Shown here piece by piece: positions 5,346-54,645 of a stretch of 64,000 bases of DNA (within the stretch, counting starts at the first letter, position 1; each line of letters opens with the position of its first letter). The notes beneath the pieces were generated by a model that was given only the letters and a program-made list of their open reading frames with translations, was not told the DNA's origin and made no database searches. The position numbers and the translations under genes are program-made. Origin of the DNA: Alphaproteobacteria bacterium (GTDB taxonomy: Bacteria; Pseudomonadota; Alphaproteobacteria; Rs-D84); contig SUUN01000002.1 in NCBI GenBank assembly GCA_015062495.1, forward strand, positions 159,210-223,209, given 5' to 3'.

Positions 5346-6623
5346 ATGTTGGATATAAAATTTATTCGTGAAAACCCAGAAACCGTTAAAAACGCCTGCC
5401 GGGTCAAAGGTATGACAGATTACACAGACGAAATCCTGGCGTTGGACGCACGCGTTCGTGAACTGAAAACAGTCACCCAGGCAAAAACCGCCGAAAAAAA
5501 TAAAATCACACGCGAAATTCCAACCGCAACCGACCGCGCACCGTTAATCGCGCGTTCGCGCGAAATCGCGAACGAAATCGCGGCTGATATGGCGGAACTT
5601 GCGGACAAAGAATCCCAGTTAAACGATTTATTACACCGCGTTCCACAAATCCCTTCAAACGACGCACCAATTGGTCGCGACGACACAGAAAACGTGGAAA
5701 TCAGACGCGTTGGCACACCACGCGAATTTGACTTTACCCCACGTCCACAATGGGAACTGTTGGAAATGAACGGTTGGTGGAAACCTGAAAAAATCGCATC
5801 AATCTGTGGCACCCGCACCTATGCCCTGTTTGGCGAAGCAGCGGAACTGGAACTGGCAATTCAAACATATGTTCTACAAAAACTGATGGCACGCGGATTC
5901 ACATTCGTAAACTGTCCATCAATTACAAAACCCCAGACCATATTTAACGCCGGCCACTTTATGGGTTCGGACCTGTCCGTCATGAATAACGATGTATTTA
6001 TGTTAACCGACACCGATCGTTGCCTGGCGGGAACGGCTGAAATCATCTTAAATTCGCTGCACAGTGACGAAGTTTTAAACGAAAAAGATTTGCCAATTAA
6101 ATACGCGGGCTATTCCCCCTGTTTCCGCAAAGAAGCCGGCGCCGCCGGTCGTGACACCCGCGGAATCGTGCGCATACACCAGTTTAACAAGGTTGAACAG
6201 TATATTTACTGCACCCCCGAACAATCGGACGAAATGCACGAACATTTGTTAAACAACCTGTGCGAAGTAATGGATGATTTGGAATTACCATACCGCGTAA
6301 TTGCGGCATGTACCGGCGACATGGGATTTAACAAGGTTAAAATGCACGACGTCGAAGCCTGGTTCCCCAGTGAAAACACATACCGTGAACTGGGTTCATG
6401 TTCTTCGATTGGCACATTCCAGGCGCGCCGCACCAACACACGTTACCGCGCATCGGACGGCACACTGCAATTCTGCGCAACATTAAATAACACAGGTATC
6501 GCCCTGCCACGCGCAATTGTACCAGTAATTGAAAACCACCAAAACCCAGACGGTTCAGTGAACATCCCAAAAAAACTGCAACCATTAATGGGCGGTCGCA
6601 CAAAAATCGGTGGCAAACACTAA
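5346..6623 (+). CDS. serS: serine--tRNA ligase
   Basis: 425 aa; N-terminal coiled-coil arm, class II aaRS core; RBS aaggaac upstream. Confidence 0.95.
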   Translation: MLDIKFIRENPETVKNACRVKGMTDYTDEILALDARVRELKTVTQAKTAEKNKITREIPTATDRAPLIARSREIANEIAADMAELADKESQLNDLLHRVPQIPSNDAPIGRDDTENVEIRRVGTPREFDFTPRPQWELLEMNGWWKPEKIASICGTRTYALFGEAAELELAIQTYVLQKLMARGFTFVNCPSITKPQTIFNAGHFMGSDLSVMNNDVFMLTDTDRCLAGTAEIILNSLHSDEVLNEKDLPIKYAGYSPCFRKEAGAAGRDTRGIVRIHQFNKVEQYIYCTPEQSDEMHEHLLNNLCEVMDDLELPYRVIAACTGDMGFNKVKMHDVEAWFPSENTYRELGSCSSIGTFQARRTNTRYRASDGTLQFCATLNNTGIALPRAIVPVIENHQNPDGSVNIPKKLQPLMGGRTKIGGKH

Positions 6624-8017: not shown

Positions 8018-9751
8018 TTACAACGGCATCTTAACACTATCTTGCATCATTTCAACGAATGCGTCCAGTGACATTGATTCCTGTTTTTCAACCCCCAACT
8101 TGCGCAGTGTGACATTTCTGTCTGCCATTTCTTTTTCACCAACAACGGCAATGATTGGCGTCTTGGCCAACGACAGTTCGCGGATTTTATAGTTGACCTT
8201 TTCGTCCCTCAAATCTGCGCGCGCATTCACACCGGCATTACGCAACATTTCAACAACTTCATTTGCGTAATCGGCATGTTTTTGCGAAATTGGTGTAACA
8301 ACAACCGGTTCTGGCGACAACCATAATGGCAAATTACCACCCGTTGATTCCAGCAATACGCCCATAAAGCGTTCAATAGAACCCAACATCGCACGATGCA
8401 ACATAATCGGACGATGTTTTTCACCATCTTCGCCGACATAGGACAGGTCAAATCTTTCCGGCAAATTCATATCCAATTGCACCGTACCGCACTGCCATAC
8501 GCGCCCCATAGAATCGCGCAGATAGTTATCAATCTTTGGACCATAGAACGCCGCATCTCCTTCGGCGATTTCATATTCAATCCCGTTCGCATCCAGGGCA
8601 TGCTTTAATGCGCCTTCGGCCTTGTCCCAGATTTCATCCGACCCGATACGGAATTCTGATTCTTTGCGCGTTGCCAGTTTCATGGTAATTTTATCAAATC
8701 CAAACTTGCCATAAATATCTTTGATAAAGCGCAGGATTTTAACCACTTCTTCTTCTAACTGTTCTTCGGTACAGAAAATATGCGCATCGTCCTGGGTAAA
8801 TTCACGCACACGCATCAGACCCGACAAACCGCCCGCCGCCTCATAACGATGAACCTTGCCAAATTCGGCCATATACAATGGTAAATCTTTGTACGAACGC
8901 AATCCATGCCCAAACACCAACATACCACCCGGGCATGACATTGGTTTGATACAGAACACTTTGCCATCCTGGGTTTTACCTGAATAGTTATGTTCACCAT
9001 ACTTTGCCCAGTGACCACTGCGTTCCCACAAACATCTGTCCATAACGGCCGGCGTTGAAATTTCCTGATAGCCTGCCCGTTCTTGGCGCGCACGTACATA
9101 TTCAATCAGACGGCGATACATCTTGTACCCCTTGTCGTGCCAGAAAACCGCCCCCGGCGCATATTCTGGCTCAAAGTGGAACAAATCCATATCCTTGCCC
9201 AATTTACGGTTATCGCGCGCGGCGGCCTCTTCCTGCATTTTCAGGAAATTATCCAATTCTTCGCGTGTTGCGAACGCATCAACATAGATACGCTGTAACA
9301 TTTTGTTTTTTGAATCCCCCTTCCAGTATGCACCGGCAACACTGCGGATTTTGAAACTGTCGCGTGGTAAATCCTTGGAACTTTCCACGTGTGGTCCACG
9401 ACACAGGTCAACAAAATCACGGAAAGTATAGATTGACAATGCTTCGCCCGCCGCATCATATTCGTTCAACCATTCCATTTTATATGGTTGGTCTGCAAAG
9501 ATTTCTTTGGCCTCGGCCAACGAAACATTTCTCTGTTCAAAACGGCCATTAGACTTAATTAAATCACGCATTTCCCGTTCGATTTTTTCAAAATCATCTT
9601 CGGAAAACCGATATTCCGTATCAAAGTCATAATAGAATCCATTTTCAATCGCCGGACCGCCCGCGAATTTAACATCTGGGTGTAATTTTTTAACCGCCGC
9701 CGCCATCACGTGTGCCAACGAATGACGCATTAACTCGATATCATATGCCAT
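8018..9751 (-). CDS. thrS: threonine--tRNA ligase (N-terminal TGS domain apparently absent)
   Basis: 577 aa; begins at editing domain (HSLAHVMAAAV); class II motifs and C-terminal anticodon-binding domain. Confidence 0.95.
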   Translation of the reverse strand: MAYDIELMRHSLAHVMAAAVKKLHPDVKFAGGPAIENGFYYDFDTEYRFSEDDFEKIEREMRDLIKSNGRFEQRNVSLAEAKEIFADQPYKMEWLNEYDAAGEALSIYTFRDFVDLCRGPHVESSKDLPRDSFKIRSVAGAYWKGDSKNKMLQRIYVDAFATREELDNFLKMQEEAAARDNRKLGKDMDLFHFEPEYAPGAVFWHDKGYKMYRRLIEYVRARQERAGYQEISTPAVMDRCLWERSGHWAKYGEHNYSGKTQDGKVFCIKPMSCPGGMLVFGHGLRSYKDLPLYMAEFGKVHRYEAAGGLSGLMRVREFTQDDAHIFCTEEQLEEEVVKILRFIKDIYGKFGFDKITMKLATRKESEFRIGSDEIWDKAEGALKHALDANGIEYEIAEGDAAFYGPKIDNYLRDSMGRVWQCGTVQLDMNLPERFDLSYVGEDGEKHRPIMLHRAMLGSIERFMGVLLESTGGNLPLWLSPEPVVVTPISQKHADYANEVVEMLRNAGVNARADLRDEKVNYKIRELSLAKTPIIAVVGEKEMADRNVTLRKLGVEKQESMSLDAFVEMMQDSVKMPL

Positions 9752-9971
9752 AATAAAAGCCTTTTTATATTTTATATTTTTTTAATTTGATTAACTGTTT
9801 GATTATAAGAATTTGTGCCACGCACCGCAATAGAATTTATACCCCCAACGGGGTTGTAGTAGTTGTTGTAAAGAATAAACCAAACATTTTCATAACACCA
9901 ATATTATTACCATCACCGCAAAAAGTCAATCGGTAATATCCCCTTGCGCTTGAGACAGAATAAACAAAAAT

Positions 9972-10049
9972 GTTTTAGATAAAAACAAAACCGACAACGC
10001 AGTGTACAGAAGCTACATAAGTTGTCGGTTTTGTTTTTAGATGAATTAT
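9972..10049. repeat. hairpin repeat element, type B termini, copy
   Basis: ttagataaaaacaaaaccgacaacgcagtgtacagaagctacataagttgtcggttttgtttttagatgaattatt. Confidence 0.7.
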
Positions 10050-10055
10050 TTTTGT

Positions 10056-10772
10056 TTATTCTGCGGCGGTGAACACCTTCTGAACATCATCATTGGCATC
10101 CAGCGCATCCACCAACTTTTCCAGTTTCGCATACGCTTCGTCGTCCAAATCCATTGGCATATTTGGCAACCATGTCAATTCTGCCTGTTCTGGTTCACCC
10201 AACACATCGGCCAGATATTTCTGTGCATTGACAAAGTCTTCTGGTTTGGTTGTGATGATAAATCCTTCTTCGGATGTTTCCAGATTATCGGCATTGGCCT
10301 CCATAATAATTTCCATCATTTCGTCTTCGGTTTTGCCGATTGATGCGGGGTACATAATCTGGCCTGCGCGTGTGAACATGAACACAACAGAACCTTCTTC
10401 GCCCATATTTCCGCCATTTTTGCCAAAGATATTGCGAATTTCCGGCACAGTACGACGTGGATTATCGGTCAATGCCTCTACAATCACCGGCACTGCACCC
10501 GGTCCATAACCTTCATAACGCACAGATTCGTAATTTTCTGTATTTGAACCCGATGCCTTGTCAATTGCGCGTTTGATATTGTCGTTCGGCATAGAATTCT
10601 TGCGCGCGGTTAAAATCGCCAAACGCAGGCGTGGATTGTTATCTGGATTTTTATCACCCAACTTTGCCGCCATGGTAATTTCACGCGCCAGTTTTGTAAA
10701 CAGCCCACTGCGTGCTGCGTCGGCTGCGCCCTTTTTATGCTGAATATTGTGCCATTTACTGTGTCCACTCAT
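10056..10772 (-). CDS. YebC/PmpR family DNA-binding transcriptional regulator
   Basis: 238 aa; MSGHSKWHNIQHKKG...; family signature throughout. Confidence 0.9.
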   Translation of the reverse strand: MSGHSKWHNIQHKKGAADAARSGLFTKLAREITMAAKLGDKNPDNNPRLRLAILTARKNSMPNDNIKRAIDKASGSNTENYESVRYEGYGPGAVPVIVEALTDNPRRTVPEIRNIFGKNGGNMGEEGSVVFMFTRAGQIMYPASIGKTEDEMMEIIMEANADNLETSEEGFIITTKPEDFVNAQKYLADVLGEPEQAELTWLPNMPMDLDDEAYAKLEKLVDALDANDDVQKVFTAAE

Positions 10773-49085: not shown

Positions 49086-49191
49086 AAACCCCTTTCAAAT
49101 AAATGTCTCTCTAAGCATAAAACACAAACAAAACAAACACAAGAATTTATACCTGCCACAAAAACCGCCACACGGGCTGTTTGAATTCTGA

Positions 49192-49233
49192 TAGCAGCGG
49201 AGGGATTCGGACCCCCGACCAAAGGATTATGAT
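49192..49233 (-). other. 3'-half fragment of tRNA-Met (attL-like direct repeat of islet)
   Basis: tagcagcggagggattcggacccccgaccaaaggattatgat: 42/42 identical to 53879-53920 (anticodon loop to discriminator); 5' half absent. Confidence 0.75.
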
Positions 49234-49559
49234 ATACCAGCGCTGGGGAATTTCTCCGCACGAGCTAGGCAGAAATCCGCACCTTTCATAAGCATACAAA
49301 ATTTCTATGTACGCAATATGTCCGCCGAAAGAAAAAACGCAATCAGATTAAATACAAAATTCACTTTAACAAAAATCGCTACACCACTCACATTTCTGCC
49401 ATTTTTTAACCATTTTTCTATGTAAAGTTTTTACCCATACTTAATCATACCAAATACAAACCCCATACTTTTAATATCTAATTGAGATTTTTGATTTTTA
49501 ATGATAGACTATGAAATGAATCATTTTGGAAATTTTATTCCTTTAATACGGTAAAAAAC

Positions 49560-50216
49560 ATGAAACTAAAAGCTTTTTATTTTCTGTCATTATGTTGTCT
49601 GCTGACTGGATGTGTTGAAAGCGCAAGGACCAAGTATTTGTCTTTTTATATTGATGTTCCAAAACAAGATCCAAGTCCGTCCAAAGCAGTGTTTTCCTCG
49701 GTTGTACCTACTGACGGTCCGGATGGTGTATGCATATACAAAAATGGTAAGTGCGATAATTCCAATCTAGATTTTTTGATAAAAGATTTTAAGAAAGAAT
49801 TTGATTCAGATTTTATAGCAACATACTATGCTCTTAAGGTAAACGATAATACAAACAAATTCCAAGGCTGTGGATATATGTTTATGGATTCAGAAATAAA
49901 AGAACATGAAAATGAATACGAAACCAAATCGAACAACTTGGTTTTGAGAACCTGGGCAACTTGTCCGACAGAATCAACATTTGATTATCGAACATATGTT
50001 TTTTACAAAAATAAAGAAATCGGTACAGTAAACTTATTGAATTCTGTCTATGACGAAGAAAACAGGGAATGGGTCAAAGAGATTGTGCCAAAAATAGCAT
50101 TGTGTGCAGCCAAAACTGGTTTTAAGGGCGTAATTGGTGGCGAGGAATATTTTGTTGAAAGGCCAAAAAGTCCCTCTATGGAAGAGTTTTTTGATCAATG
50201 TGGTATGGATTGGTAA
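49560..50216 (+). CDS. islet lipoprotein, hypothetical
   Basis: LSLCCLLTGC lipobox; 218 aa; foreign codon usage. Confidence 0.5.
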   Translation: MKLKAFYFLSLCCLLTGCVESARTKYLSFYIDVPKQDPSPSKAVFSSVVPTDGPDGVCIYKNGKCDNSNLDFLIKDFKKEFDSDFIATYYALKVNDNTNKFQGCGYMFMDSEIKEHENEYETKSNNLVLRTWATCPTESTFDYRTYVFYKNKEIGTVNLLNSVYDEENREWVKEIVPKIALCAAKTGFKGVIGGEEYFVERPKSPSMEEFFDQCGMDW

Positions 50217-50218
50217 AA

Positions 50219-50842
50219 ATGAAATTAAAAACAATAAGCATTTGTCTGTTTTTTATAATAATTGGTTGGAATTGTAATGCAAAAACATTTTCAACAGCAG
50301 AACATCCAAAAAGCAAGGGAATAGAGTTAAATATTGAATATCCTGATCATTGGATATTTGCATCAGGTAAAAGACCAAACACTCTTGCAACATTTACCAG
50401 CGATTACAACAATGAGACTACAGATTATTCAAATGCTGTTTGCGTGCTAACGATTAAAGAATTTACGGACGCGGAAGAACTTTTGGAAAGGACGCCAACA
50501 AAATCTGATTGGGAAGAAATAATCGTTTACATAAAAGATAATACGGCTATTGAGTTTTTTGAATCAACCTATCAAAATGCCAAAGTACTATCTTCAAAAA
50601 TGACTTATTTTGATAAACAACCCGGCTTTATCGCAGAAGGAACTGGGTTAGCAGTCCGCGCCGGTCAAGAAATGTTCGCTCATGGCAATGTATACTTTTT
50701 TGGATATGAAAATAAAGTTATAGCAATATCATGCAGCACTTATGCTTTTACACAAGAGGCAGCTGACAAGAGATTTGAAATAGAGAAACAAAACTTTGCA
50801 TTTGTGGCCAACAGTATTATTGTTATGAATCAATATAAATAA
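50219..50842 (+). CDS. islet secreted protein, hypothetical
   Basis: start at MKLKTISICLFFIIIGWNCNA (signal peptide), 2 nt after upstream stop. Confidence 0.5.
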   Translation: MKLKTISICLFFIIIGWNCNAKTFSTAEHPKSKGIELNIEYPDHWIFASGKRPNTLATFTSDYNNETTDYSNAVCVLTIKEFTDAEELLERTPTKSDWEEIIVYIKDNTAIEFFESTYQNAKVLSSKMTYFDKQPGFIAEGTGLAVRAGQEMFAHGNVYFFGYENKVIAISCSTYAFTQEAADKRFEIEKQNFAFVANSIIVMNQYK

Positions 50843-50879
50843 AACACCAAAAATTTACCAAAACATTACCAAGACAAGT

Positions 50880-51089
50880 GTGTTGTATATTGTAAATAAT
50901 ACAACAAAGGAAATCATAATGTATGAAAATTTTAACAACAATGACATATTAGCCGCCGGGGGCCTGAAAATGATTTTAGACCTTAAGCAAATAGACAAAG
51001 AAACCGCAGATCGCATAGAGCTGTTGATTAAATATATGATACGCCAACAACTTGATGATCACAGACAACATATAATAATGGGCGTTTAA
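50880..51089 (+). CDS. islet small helical ORF (possible start at 50919, 56 aa)
   Basis: RBS aaaggaaatcataATG at internal Met. Confidence 0.3.
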   Translation: MLYIVNNTTKEIIMYENFNNNDILAAGGLKMILDLKQIDKETADRIELLIKYMIRQQLDDHRQHIIMGV

Positions 51090-51095
51090 GATACT

Positions 51096-51281
51096 TTGCC
51101 TCCTGTATTTGTACGCGGACTTCGCGTGTCGGCATTATATCTTGACGACCAGGATTTACAAAAAGAGGTTTCTAAATTCCTGGACGAACCAAATATGAAA
51201 AACCTTGAAGACATCATACACAAACTCGATGAATCAATAGCCAAAAAGCAATTAGACAAATTATTAAAGAAAAACAGATAA
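51096..51281 (+). CDS. islet small helical ORF (61 aa)
   Basis: ORF only. Confidence 0.25.
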   Translation: MPPVFVRGLRVSALYLDDQDLQKEVSKFLDEPNMKNLEDIIHKLDESIAKKQLDKLLKKNR

Positions 51282-51430
51282 ATGCCAAAAAAATAGGCTG
51301 TGGTTTTGTTTGTGTTCCAAAGATAGAATCGAATTAACCGATTCGATTTAACAAAACGAAAAAAAATCAACAAATTTTATGTTTGTCTACAAATAGTTTT
51401 TTGTTGATTTTTTCATTTTTTTATGATAAA

Positions 51431-51467
51431 GTTGCTAGCATGAACGCAAAGAAAATTTGCTAGCAAC
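51431..51467. promoter_or_regulatory. perfect 10-bp inverted repeat (putative operator) ~100 bp upstream of the ATPase gene
   Basis: gttgctagca-N17-tgctagcaac in AT-rich region 51290-51570. Confidence 0.4.
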
Positions 51468-51571
51468 TCAAACCATCTTTTTTTGGTGGTTTTTTTTATT
51501 AGAAAAATATAGAATAAACTTGAGAAATGCTATTTATGTAGTATATTTTCTCTAAAAACAAGGTATTACAT

Positions 51572-52885
51572 ATGCAAATAACTCTGAAAAATGTTGGGTA
51601 TATAAAAGAAGCCAAAGTGGATTTAGTTGGCTTAAATGTAATTGCTGGTCCAAACGGAACAGGTAAAAGCACCGTTGGCAAAACTGTTTTTTCAATAATA
51701 AAATCCATAAGTGAAAGAAACGCAATTATAAAAGAGCATAGAACAGAAATTATAAAAGGTTTATGTAGCTCAATTTTTTATGCTATACAAAACAACTTGG
51801 ATATCAAAGGGCTAACCACTAAAGACCCATCATACAGAGACTTGAGCATCCTGATGGATAACTTTAACTATAGACCTTTTGCTATGACATTGATAAGATG
51901 TCTAGAATCCAATTCTTTTATAGATGCCAGAAATCGCATAGTAAAAAATATAGCTTTAGTCGATTCTATGGAGACTTTAGACAACAAAAGTAAGTTATCT
52001 GCCAAAAGGCTTTTAGATAATTTGTTGAGTGTTTTTGTAGAAATCAACGATAATGATGCTATAACAAAATCTCTACAATATATGTATCAAGAAATATTTA
52101 GAGAACAGATCAACAATATCAACACTCACGAAACATCTGAAGTTTTGTTCGAGAATAACGGTTCTACCCTAGAATACATGGTTTCTAATAATGCGGAAAT
52201 ACTGCCATTTTCAGAGAGGTTCAAAATTCTTAATTTAGACTCTCCTCTAAAAGAAAGCATTTTTCCTAGAGTTACATTTGTTGAAACCCCTCTTGTCTTA
52301 CAAGTATCAGAATGTAGCGGATTGCCTTTGTATTGGAGTGACCTACTTTCAAAATTGAAAATTGATATAAATACTGCTAATACAGGTATTAACAAATGGG
52401 TCTATGATGAAATTTCTGATATTCTTGGTGGCGAACTGATTCATATATCAGAAAAACAAGAATTTTATTTTATCCCAAAAGGCACCAGCAATAAACTATA
52501 TGTCAACAATATGGCCTCAGGTGAAAAATTATTTGGCATTTTACAAAGATTATCAAAAATGGGCTTTTTGTCTTCTGATCATTTGTTAATTTTTGACGAA
52601 CCAGAAAACCATTTACACCCTCAATGGCAAGTAAAACTTGCAGAAATATTGGTTTCTCTTGTTGAGAATAATATTTCCGTATTATTAACAACACACAGCT
52701 CTACACTAATAAGTGCCTTACGACAATTTGCAAAATCTAAAGACGTTGTAAAAAAGACAAAATTTTATTTTGCTGATCCTGAAAATAAAAAGATAACAAA
52801 CGTAAATTCCCTTAATGAAAAAGGCGAAGATGTTATTTACAAATCTTTTTATGAGTCTAAAAAATTTTTGCCAGAGTTCAAATAA
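51572..52885 (+). CDS. ABC/OLD-type (AAA_15/AAA_21-like) ATPase, candidate defense-system component
   Basis: 437 aa; Walker A GPNGTGKST, signature-like NMASGEKLFGIL, Walker B/D-loop LLIFDEPENHLHP, H-loop TTHS. Confidence 0.8.
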   Translation: MQITLKNVGYIKEAKVDLVGLNVIAGPNGTGKSTVGKTVFSIIKSISERNAIIKEHRTEIIKGLCSSIFYAIQNNLDIKGLTTKDPSYRDLSILMDNFNYRPFAMTLIRCLESNSFIDARNRIVKNIALVDSMETLDNKSKLSAKRLLDNLLSVFVEINDNDAITKSLQYMYQEIFREQINNINTHETSEVLFENNGSTLEYMVSNNAEILPFSERFKILNLDSPLKESIFPRVTFVETPLVLQVSECSGLPLYWSDLLSKLKIDINTANTGINKWVYDEISDILGGELIHISEKQEFYFIPKGTSNKLYVNNMASGEKLFGILQRLSKMGFLSSDHLLIFDEPENHLHPQWQVKLAEILVSLVENNISVLLTTHSSTLISALRQFAKSKDVVKKTKFYFADPENKKITNVNSLNEKGEDVIYKSFYESKKFLPEFK

Positions 52886-52886
52886 A

Positions 52887-53441
52887 ATGAAAAAATCAAC
52901 ACCTGTTTGTAGTATTTGTAACAGTGAAAAATCCTTATGTGGTTGCTGTGAGGCAGAGAATATCACATCGAACAAAGATTGGAGCTGCAAAGAAAAAAAT
53001 GATTATAATTTTTTAAATCAATGTATTTTTTGTGAAGGAAAACATCTGTGCTCAACAGGAAGCAATCCAGATTGTATCTATAAATATAACGGTAATTACG
53101 TAGCTGCTATAGAGATTAAAGACCAACCAGAAAACAGTATAGAATACAATATTCTTGTAAAAAAAATAAAAAATTTCTATGACAAGTCTATTGAACAAAA
53201 CTTAATTCCTTCTGTTTTTATTTTACAAATATCAAACGCAAAAAATACAGATGAAGGATTATACTCGTTACAAGACTCATGTACTTATGGTCTAGGCAAC
53301 TACGGTTTTTCAATTGGATATGGAGGAACATTATTCAGTTCAAATGAAAATTTAGCTTACATAAAATGTAGGTTTTTTGTTGTAAAATGCGCCGAATTAA
53401 CAGAAGATTTGTTTTTTCAATTACTACAAACCGACGCATAG
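52887..53441 (+). CDS. Cys-rich Zn-ribbon protein with putative PD-(D/E)xK-like core, coupled partner of the ATPase
   Basis: ATG 1 nt after ATPase stop; CSICNSEKSLCGCC...CIFCEGKHLC; NPDCIYKYNGNYVAAIEIKD (PD...ExK spacing); no clear HNH motif. Confidence 0.55.
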   Translation: MKKSTPVCSICNSEKSLCGCCEAENITSNKDWSCKEKNDYNFLNQCIFCEGKHLCSTGSNPDCIYKYNGNYVAAIEIKDQPENSIEYNILVKKIKNFYDKSIEQNLIPSVFILQISNAKNTDEGLYSLQDSCTYGLGNYGFSIGYGGTLFSSNENLAYIKCRFFVVKCAELTEDLFFQLLQTDA

Positions 53442-53580
53442 TGCGTATACAAAAATACTATCAACAATAAATATTTTTTTAGAAAAAAACACTTGATTCA
53501 ACCATTGTTAGAATTTTATACAAGCATGAATTATATATTTCTATATCCAGCACATATACATATCTGCCAAAGAGCAAAAC

Positions 53581-53616
53581 TTAAAAAACACCGCCTATTT
53601 GGGGCGGTGTTTTTAA
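53581..53616 (+). terminator. rho-independent terminator after islet two-gene cassette
   Basis: aaaaaacaccgcctatttggggcggtgtttttaa. Confidence 0.75.
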
Positions 53617-53847
53617 TTATATTTATATTACTTTTGTAAAGAGTCATACCCCTTTGTAAACCTTTGTCATTCTTCGCAAGCTTTTGTCGCGACTTTCTGT
53701 TTGTTTCCCTTTATAATTCATAGTGTAAAACAAGCAAAAGGATTACACATGTAAATATATTTTCTATGTCCGAAATTATGTCCAGTATATGTAAACACAT
53801 CTGCTAAAAATTACAAATTCGGGCGAAACTGAGAACTTTTTGCTAAA

Positions 53848-53873
53848 TAAAAAATCCCGGTTAACCGGGAAAT
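53848..53873 (-). terminator. rho-independent terminator immediately 3' of tRNA-Met
   Basis: minus strand: tcccggttaaccgggatttttt. Confidence 0.7.
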
Positions 53874-53875
53874 TC

Positions 53876-53950
53876 TGGTAGCAGCGGAGGGATTCGGACC
53901 CCCGACCAAAGGATTATGATTCCTCTGCTCTACCACTGAGCTACGCTGCC
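53876..53950 (-). tRNA. tRNA-Met (anticodon CAT; elongator type; tRNA-Ile2 not excluded), 75 nt, CCA encoded
   Basis: GGCAGCGTAGCTCAGTGGTAGAGCAGAGGAATCATAATCCTTTGGTCGGGGGTCCGAATCCCTCCGCTGCTACCA; anticodon stem GAGGA/TCCTT lacks the initiator 3xGC. Confidence 0.85.
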
Positions 53951-54087
53951 AAGCGTCACGCATTATAACAACATTTTTTTCAAAAGCAAGAAAAACAAAC
54001 ACGCCGATTTTATTCGTATTTACAATCATTATTTTTTTTAACAAAATAGATTTGAACCCAACCCTAATTTATGGTATCATACACCTT

Positions 54088-54645
54088 ATGAAAAAATTCT
54101 TGTGTAGTTTGTTAATAATATCTGCTGCGACAACCGCCCACGCAGACACAAACCCGTTTTTTAATGGATACGACAACCAAATTGCTCTCAATTTCGGCTG
54201 GGGCGTGGACAGTGGTTTTCTGTTACCTGCACCTGTTCGATGGGCACCATTTATCATGCTGAACGCTGGCTATTCTCAGCCAACTGAATTTTTTCGCCTG
54301 CCAGCGCGCCGCACATTAAACATAACCCAGACATTGGGCATGGGCACATCGCGCGGATGGCATTGGGACAAATATACGATTCCAATCGTCACTCTGTCCG
54401 AAGACGTTATATTGGCACACGGTAAAAACTGGTATTTCTATTCCGGCCTGGCCGTCGGCATGCAAGCTCAGCAAAATGAACGCATTGGTTCAAAATTACT
54501 GTTTGGATTTAAACTGGGCACTGGTTATAAACTGTCTGAATGCACAAATCTGGAATTGTTTATGCAACACTATTCTAACGGCAACACCGCGCCCGAGAAT
54601 AATTCATACGCATTCTTTGGTGCCGGCCTGACATATAATTTCTAA
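54088..54645 (+). CDS. PagL-like lipid A deacylase / acyloxyacyl hydrolase outer-membrane protein
   Basis: signal peptide; 8-strand barrel size; C-terminal HYSNG catalytic motif and terminal Phe. Confidence 0.55.
   Translation: MKKFLCSLLIISAATTAHADTNPFFNGYDNQIALNFGWGVDSGFLLPAPVRWAPFIMLNAGYSQPTEFFRLPARRTLNITQTLGMGTSRGWHWDKYTIPIVTLSEDVILAHGKNWYFYSGLAVGMQAQQNERIGSKLLFGFKLGTGYKLSECTNLELFMQHYSNGNTAPENNSYAFFGAGLTYNF

Follow-up and report, generated by a model that had tools for sequence, protein, structure and literature searches.

The 64,000-nucleotide (nt) stretch analysed here (the window) belongs to an Alphaproteobacteria metagenome-assembled genome (GenBank assembly GCA_015062495.1, contig SUUN01000002.1, positions 159,210 to 223,209) and carries a two-gene operon that probably represents an anti-phage or anti-mobile-element defence module of the class that combines an ATP-binding cassette (ABC) ATPase with a PD-(D/E)xK nuclease. 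Gene 1 (51572-52885, with a TAA stop at 52883-52885) encodes the ATPase of 437 amino acids (aa), and gene 2 (52887-53441, with its ATG at 52887) encodes a cysteine-rich partner of 184 aa plus stop that is predicted to adopt the PD-(D/E)xK fold; both genes and all of their features lie on the forward strand. Their products (MBE6457004.1 and MBE6457005.1, respectively) are named hypothetical proteins by NCBI. The architecture of ABC ATPase plus PD-(D/E)xK nuclease is already known and has validated members; the part that appears to be undescribed is the nuclease sequence family together with its cysteine features, rather than the architecture.

Gene 1 is an ABC ATPase of the SMC/Rad50/OLD-like kind. 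Its product scores above the gathering cut-offs of both Pfam AAA_21 (61.2 bits, cut-off 27) and AAA_15 (46 bits, cut-off 32.1), and it possesses the ABC ATPase head fold, the best structural matches being the heads of SMC and Rad50, with RecF and RecN also listed. The two motifs to which a preliminary description of this DNA, made from the sequence alone, had drawn attention are in place, namely a Walker A motif, GPNGTGKS(T) (residues 26-34; 51647-51673), and a Walker B/D-loop motif, DEPENHLHP (residues 342-350; 52595-52621), the latter within a Walker B region, LLIFDEPENHLHP (residues 338-350), that starts with LLIFDEPE (338-345). Also detected were a signature-like ASGE (residues 315-318; 52514-52525) and an H-loop, TTHS (residues 373-376; 52688-52699). 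G26, N28, G31, K32, S33, D342, E343, P344, E345, and H347 are invariant in 78 homologues, in which H375 is conserved at 90% or more. Where SMC and Rad50 have a long coiled coil, gene 1 has as its insert an all-helical segment of ∼130 residues (residues 49-176; 51716-52099). The best PADLOC match is to HEC-02A (E 1.4e-26), in two stretches comprising Walker A and residues 256-393, and is followed by PDC-M47A (E 4.9e-23), PD-T4-4_A (E 3.6e-22), and NsnB (E 2.1e-21), and then by AriA, GajA, and PtuA; phrog_14430, a family of unknown function, is matched over the full length. The earlier assignment of gene 1 to the AAA_21/AAA_15 ATPases known from Septu, PARIS, and Gabija is upheld by these Pfam, PADLOC, and structural matches.

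The core of gene 2, NPDCIYKYNGNYVAAIEIKD (residues 60-79), had been described as PD...ExK-like, and comparison with its relatives agrees. D62, E76, and K78 (P61-D62 at 53067-53072 and E76-I-K78 at 53112-53120) are invariant across 118 aligned relatives, most of which are only 12-20% identical to gene 2, and P61 is conserved at 90% or more. Individual members of the family give weak but recurrent matches to models of PD-(D/E)xK proteins, including HEC-02B (in at least 16 of the 118 relatives, best E 2e-4), CARF_PDDEXK (E 2.2e-5), L_protein_N (in 30 members), Cas4_II, NERD, and SduA_C. Because the triad is invariant in 118 sequences and these matches recur, gene 2 has been assigned to the PD-(D/E)xK fold; we conclude from this sequence evidence that it most likely encodes a protein of that fold with an intact catalytic triad, and it is proposed to be the nuclease effector of the pair. 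An AlphaFold2 model of gene 2 has a mean pLDDT (predicted value of the local distance difference test) of 71.7, with residues 60-180 modelled confidently (block means of 83-92, save one at 72). A fold search revealed likeness to Mus81, XPF, Bax1, and NucS-type repair nucleases at modest scores, while Foldseek against the PDB returned nothing significant and the profile of gene 2, searched against PDB sequences, returned only spurious coiled-coil matches (Nsp1/NUP62).

Gene 2 has no match at E ≤ 1 in Pfam, PADLOC (PADLOC-DB 2.0), NCBIfam, or PHROGs, and PtuB, AriB, AbiLii, and GajB were on this basis rejected as its identity. A match of gene 2 to an HNH/PtuB, AriB, or AbiLii profile had been named in advance as the result that would make the pair a known system, and none was obtained at that threshold. 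The earlier statement that gene 2 contains neither HNH nor TOPRIM likewise agrees with the library scans, in which neither HNH nor TOPRIM/DUF4435 was found in gene 2 by Pfam or PADLOC; moreover, no TOPRIM is fused in gene 1 and no helicase gene is present in the island described below.

Close relatives of gene 2 are scarce, forming seven clusters among 5.8 billion proteins. An exhaustive hidden Markov model search with a profile of the close clade recovered nine of 1.84 billion cluster representatives, one of which (P0134) is a repetitive artefact translation, and the cysteine-rich clade was found in two of 185,579 species-representative genomes, those of a Candidatus Enterousia sp. and of Candidatus Fibrimonadales. 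A wider profile, constructed from the close clade and the aligned partner genes of more distant ATPase homologues, recovered 117 clusters of ∼176-aa hypothetical proteins from Oligella, Acinetobacter, Pseudomonas aeruginosa, Roseateles, and Alcaligenaceae, and none of these 117 clusters has a Pfam domain.

The ATPase gene is located directly upstream of, and on the same strand as, its partner in all 12 independent contexts, with an intergenic spacing of +1 nt in the window, where a single base separates the TAA of gene 1 from the ATG of gene 2, as had been described, and of −32 to +20 nt in the 11 others. The genes are strictly adjacent in 12 of 12 contexts, and this linkage, taken with the invariance of the triad, makes the observation of the pair more than a matter of chance. 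The neighbourhoods include type I restriction-modification genes, an integrase, and Fic (locus L011), an Eco57I-type methyltransferase and a ResIII/T5orf172 helicase (L013), serine recombinases (L017), and a contig of a human-gut phage (L019). In Oligella ureolytica (L015) the distantly related pair ends beside a tRNA-Leu (CAA) gene at 5895-5979, with no flanking direct repeat within the 9.3 kb covered, and in P. aeruginosa (L025; GCA_045953975.1, 1-4476) it lies inside a BREX locus with PglZ and BrxL downstream. The contexts support the view that the pair has the surroundings expected of defence systems and mobile elements, and the architecture, with its tight coupling and such neighbourhoods, is defence-like, as the preliminary description had proposed.

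Two of these loci show further features. In the P. aeruginosa BREX locus, the pair and an 83-aa open reading frame (ORF) are situated between two ORFs that match positions 414-621 and 619-1173, respectively, of the 1174-position PglX model; the flanking ORFs match the N- and C-terminal halves of PglX, so that either this BREX methyltransferase gene is split or the pair has inserted into it and interrupted it. In Acinetobacter populi (L026), a second pair, composed of a 371-aa ATPase and a 171-aa protein, is found directly downstream (8593-10214), making a tandem of two ABC ATPase pairs. The second ATPase is HEC-01A-like (4e-25), and its 171-aa neighbour has no PADLOC match.

In the window, the pair is located on a low-GC genomic island of ∼4.6-4.7 kb (49234-53870), the GC content of which is 31.8% compared with 44.6% in the remainder of the window. 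The integration site is an intact tRNA-Met (CAT) gene on the reverse strand (53876-53950; ARAGORN, Rfam tRNA 66.3 bits). Its 3′ half forms the proximal direct repeat detected by repeat search (53871-53920, reverse strand), and a partial copy of that half, 50 nt long and 98% identical, constitutes the distal, att-like repeat (49184-49233, reverse strand). Direct repeats derived from the 3′ end of a tRNA gene thus flank DNA of foreign composition, as in a tRNA-integrated island. No tyrosine integrase was found among the ORFs of 49234-53870 by Pfam; an island at the same tRNA in Candidatus Enterousia sp. (L001; GCA_045613345.1, 4643-8814) has one. The L001 island is bounded by a 46-nt tRNA-Met repeat, 100% identical between its copies, and comprises, besides the ATPase-nuclease pair, only a tyrosine integrase of 473 aa (HTH_17, Arm-DNA-bind_3, Phage_integrase). 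Equivalent tRNA-Met repeats also bound a further island (L003). The island DNA at 50888-53984 of the window is 96.5% identical to L003 1590-4673, and the flanking chromosomal PagL gene (54006-54645 vs. L003 4754-5393) is only 76.9% identical, from which recent horizontal movement between related gut Alphaproteobacteria can be deduced. The boundaries of the island, like its mobility, the contexts, the adjacency of the genes, their domain identities, and their invariant motifs, are direct observations.

Among the known systems close to the pair is HEC-02 (Hma-embedded candidate 02; Payne et al., bioRxiv 10.1101/2024.01.29.577857), which consists of an ABC ATPase and a NERD-like PD-(D/E)xK protein and protects Escherichia coli; the requirement for both genes in phage defence has been demonstrated for the Dickeya system (bioRxiv 10.1101/2024.01.29.577857). 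For comparison, the Dickeya sequences were taken from supplementary table 2 of the preprint and two plasmid-borne homologues were added by tblastn. Like the pair, HEC-02 is a co-oriented two-gene operon in which the ATPase gene is followed by that of a small PD-(D/E)xK protein (∼170 aa in HEC-02). HEC-02A is the top PADLOC match of the wider-family ATPases (1e-34) as it is of gene 1 (1.4e-26), and the C-terminal lobe of gene 1 (residues 254-392) aligns with HEC-02A over 137 columns at an hhalign probability of 99.3%; by BLASTP, gene 1 is 25% identical to Dickeya HEC-02A over 136 aa. The nuclease cores share the local pattern D-x2-Y-x(8-10)-IE(I/V)KD (MDVVYIDAHTFWLIEVKD vs. PDCIYKYNGNYVAAIEIKD). 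However, gene 1 is ∼95 aa longer than HEC-02A, only Walker A and residues 254-392 can be aligned, and the helical insert is not shared, whereas gene 2 has no match to HEC-02B in PADLOC at E ≤ 1, and the C34/C168 pair and N-terminal cysteine cluster of gene 2 (see below) are missing in HEC-02B. The PADLOC models would not call the window locus HEC-02.

PD-T4-4 (Vassallo et al., 2022; PMC9519451) is a validated two-gene system of E. coli, found on a mobile element and encoding a P-loop/AAA_15-type ATPase and a PDDEXK nuclease (PMC9519451; domain table in PMC10952713). The PD-T4-4_A model, at a length of 460-474, is close in size to gene 1 and matches it at E 3.6e-22; however, the comparison was made by model rather than by sequences, and the match is limited to the C-terminal lobe (residues 275-385 vs. 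267-375 of 460 in the model). PD-T4-4_B matched neither gene 2 at E ≤ 1 nor its 117 relatives at E ≤ 0.05, and PF11645 is absent from the list of 25 Pfam families that the relatives match at E ≤ 0.1 and was not found for gene 2 at E ≤ 1 either. Direct membership in HEC-02 or PD-T4-4 was rejected, since the models of the partner proteins (HEC-02B and PD-T4-4_B) are unmatched. A comparative-genomic survey also lists, from BREX loci, ABC ATPases of the OLD type whose partner is a PD-(D/E)xK restriction-type nuclease or an HNH or PIN effector (PMC12839542; Krishnan et al., 2020, cited therein), and pairs of such an ATPase with a nuclease are likewise embedded in restriction-like systems that have an ABC ATPase at their centre (PMC12839542). 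The relative of the pair within the P. aeruginosa BREX locus resembles these BREX-embedded pairs, in contrast to the window copy, which is located on a tRNA island; as this source is a catalogue of architectures from 594 taxa, the comparison is one by description.

The pair differs from the remaining systems of this kind in its effector. In PARIS (AriA/AriB) the AriB effector is a TOPRIM/DUF4435 protein, and in Septu and retron-associated PtuA/PtuB the PtuB effector is an HNH protein, neither of which gene 2 contains, whereas Gabija (GajA/GajB) utilizes a fused TOPRIM and a UvrD-like helicase, both missing from the pair and the island. The preliminary description had suspected that the effector matched no known partner and that the pair might be a new variant; this was correct of the nuclease family, which is in no library searched, and not of the design, which is known from PD-T4-4, HEC-02, and the BREX catalogue.

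It is proposed that the pair constitutes a self-contained operon, coupled in translation, and that dimers of the gene 1 product would detect a signal of infection by means of the helical insert peculiar to the family (residues 49-176). Analogy with PARIS, Septu, and HEC-02 suggests that the nuclease may be held or gated by the ATPase and that ATP binding or hydrolysis would release or activate it. The activated gene 2 product, with D62, E76, and K78 as its putative catalytic residues, would then cleave DNA of the phage or else targets in the host, the latter leading to abortive infection, and the module as a whole would travel as the cargo of a small tRNA-Met-integrating island. Within this scheme we infer the complex between the two proteins, the activity of the nuclease and what it cuts, the trigger, and phage protection.

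Several observations weigh against a defence function. The support for this nuclease family is computational; no defence model in the four libraries fits gene 2, the N-terminal third of which is modelled at low confidence; and hhalign comparison with one or three HEC-02B sequences gave a probability of only 0.7-12%, confined to the D...ExK core. In the window, the neighbours outside the island are housekeeping lipopolysaccharide genes (GT8 glycosyltransferase, PagL, and an LptB-like ATPase) rather than a defence island, and the Roseateles copy (L024) has no defence or mobile-element genes nearby.

The pair could alternatively be an addiction or stabilization module of the island, with a nuclease toxin and an ATPase neutralizer selected for preventing loss of the element. 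The pair is the sole cargo beside the integrase in the L001 island and could therefore serve the element itself, and it remains intact in the window, where the island has lost its integrase; furthermore, the Pfam title of AAA_21 is "putative AbiEii toxin, Type IV TA system" and AriA chains in the PDB bear the name "AriA antitoxin." This explanation is nevertheless considered unlikely, as the pair also occurs without integrase or repeats, in a BREX locus, beside restriction-modification systems, and in a phage, and validated systems of the same architecture (HEC-02 and PD-T4-4) act against phage, although addiction and defence are not mutually exclusive. The structural matches of gene 1 to SMC/Rad50 heads, RecF, and RecN, the fold likeness of gene 2 to repair nucleases such as Mus81, XPF, Bax1, and those of NucS type, and the presence of an integrase beside the pair in both L001 and L011 would also be compatible with housekeeping or element-encoded DNA processing, in which a RecF/RecN/SbcCD-like ATPase and a structure-specific nuclease would act in repair, recombination, or the excision or replication of the island. 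Such a role is quite improbable given the extremely patchy distribution of the cysteine-rich clade, the carriage of the pair on a horizontally moved, low-GC island, the lack of conserved synteny with repair genes in any context examined, and the missing SMC/Rad50 coiled coil in gene 1. A housekeeping RecF/RecN-like identity of gene 1 with conserved synteny, which had been named at the outset as a finding that would overturn the defence interpretation, was itself rejected on distribution and context.

A further possibility, and the most improbable of those considered, is that gene 2 encodes an inactive PD-(D/E)xK fold serving as a DNA-binding or sensor subunit, with the effector function residing elsewhere, for example in ATP depletion or DNA clamping by the ATPase. 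Inactive restriction endonuclease folds are common in defence proteins, such as that of BrxHII (PMC12839542), and the fold-search scores of gene 2 are modest; however, the retention of P61 and the D62, E76, K78 triad in 118 sequences that otherwise share only 13-20% identity is the pattern of an active site rather than of a degenerate fold. A defence module that acts through a gene 2 nuclease remains the preferred interpretation.

The preliminary description had also assigned two CxxC pairs and a Zn-ribbon to the N-terminus of gene 2. The motifs CSIC (residues 8-11), CGCC (18-21), and CIFC (46-49) are indeed present, in a cluster extending from C8 to C55 (52908-53051), and conservation across the family is limited to C34 (99%; 52986-52988) and C168 (98%; 53388-53390). 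C18 and C21 are conserved at 94% in a 17-sequence alignment (A3) of the cysteine-rich clade and three distant partners but at only 7-8% in the wider family, C8 and C11 are retained in close relatives only, and CIFC is lost in homologues at ∼45% identity. The Zn-ribbon label is unproven, as no zinc-ribbon family of Pfam matches the N-terminus even at E ≤ 10 and pLDDT is <50 for residues 1-53. Of the loose ends of the analysis, the most interesting is the presence of C34 and C168 in nearly all members, together with the additional cysteine cluster in the rare clade. It is conceivable, if rather doubtful, that C34, which precedes the catalytic core, and C168, which follows it, form a metal staple (Zn or Fe-S, as in Cas4/AddB-type nucleases) joining the two ends of the nuclease, supplemented by C18 and C21 in the rare clade, and that control of the effector depends on metal or redox state in addition to the ATPase; the nuclease partners would then make up an effector family in their own right, with at least 117 sequence clusters, that extends from Alphaproteobacteria to Pseudomonas, Acinetobacter, Fibrobacterota, and a gut phage. 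Should this be so, the family would deserve a name of its own and its mechanism would be distinct from those of HEC-02 and PD-T4-4; the conserved pair in any case offers a concrete, testable hypothesis on metal-dependent nuclease control.

If confirmed, the pair would represent a third, sequence-distinct branch of the ABC ATPase plus PD-(D/E)xK nuclease defence systems. The general picture is unchanged by it, as a design of this kind had been described and validated before. Since the effector is not recognized by Pfam, PADLOC-DB 2.0, NCBIfam, or PHROGs, tools that rely on such models would miss these loci, including the P. aeruginosa BREX copy. The minimal L001 island, with the order att, integrase, ATPase, nuclease, att, would be a neat, naturally occurring case of an integrative element whose only cargo is a defence module.

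With respect to the extent of gene 2, its length had been given as 185 aa and is in fact 184 aa plus stop, in agreement with the NCBI record. A longer version starting at 52815 (208 aa), which would overlap gene 1 by 71 nt, is unsupported, and was rejected because of the 184-aa NCBI call and the starts of homologues at MKKSTP. Three of seven homologues, at 63-68% identity, begin with this sequence, and three others have a short N-terminal extension before the same methionine.

Upstream of gene 1 is a conserved operon leader (51367-51571, forward strand) that contains two hairpins followed by a promoter-like site. Both hairpins are strong: hairpin 1 (GTTGCTAGCA-N-TGCTAGCAAC) lies at 51430-51468, and hairpin 2 (ACCATC...GGTGGT; 51470-51492) is terminator-like, with a T-run after it (to 51500); the promoter-like sequence TTGAGA-16-TATATT was detected by promoter scan at 51520-51547. 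The fold of the leader RNA has a z-score of −4.16. In an alignment of the window, L001, and L003 (300 columns, mean column identity 90%), the first ∼90 columns, which lie upstream, are poorly conserved and the columns from ∼51380 to 51571 are mostly identical; the leader is more conserved than the coding region, the whole block being 78% identical to L001. The leader could function as an insulating terminator, an operator, or a small RNA; an Rfam scan of the leader and the rest of the island detected no RNA family besides tRNA-Met. At the other end of the operon, a hairpin resembling a bidirectional intrinsic terminator (53584-53614) has a 13-pair stem with six G-C pairs and T-runs on both strands. 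With a terminator-like hairpin, a promoter-like site, the two genes, and a strong bidirectional terminator, all predicted from the DNA, the operon looks self-contained.

The island also contains variable cargo that is not part of the pair. Two ORFs on the forward strand, of 218 aa (49560-50216) and 214 aa (50198-50842), each encode a protein with a hydrophobic N-terminus but had no significant family match in Pfam, PADLOC, NCBIfam, or PHROGs; the two overlap, and one carries an LTGC lipobox-like motif. They are missing from the L001 island, where the integrase takes their place, and other ORFs are found instead in L003. Between this cargo and the pair, an accessory gene of ∼120 aa (50919-51281, forward strand), with no Pfam match, is interrupted by one internal stop, an in-frame TAA at 51087-51089, and is probably a pseudogene in the window genome; it has no counterpart in L001, and the L003 orthologue (1620-1982; 120 aa) is uninterrupted.

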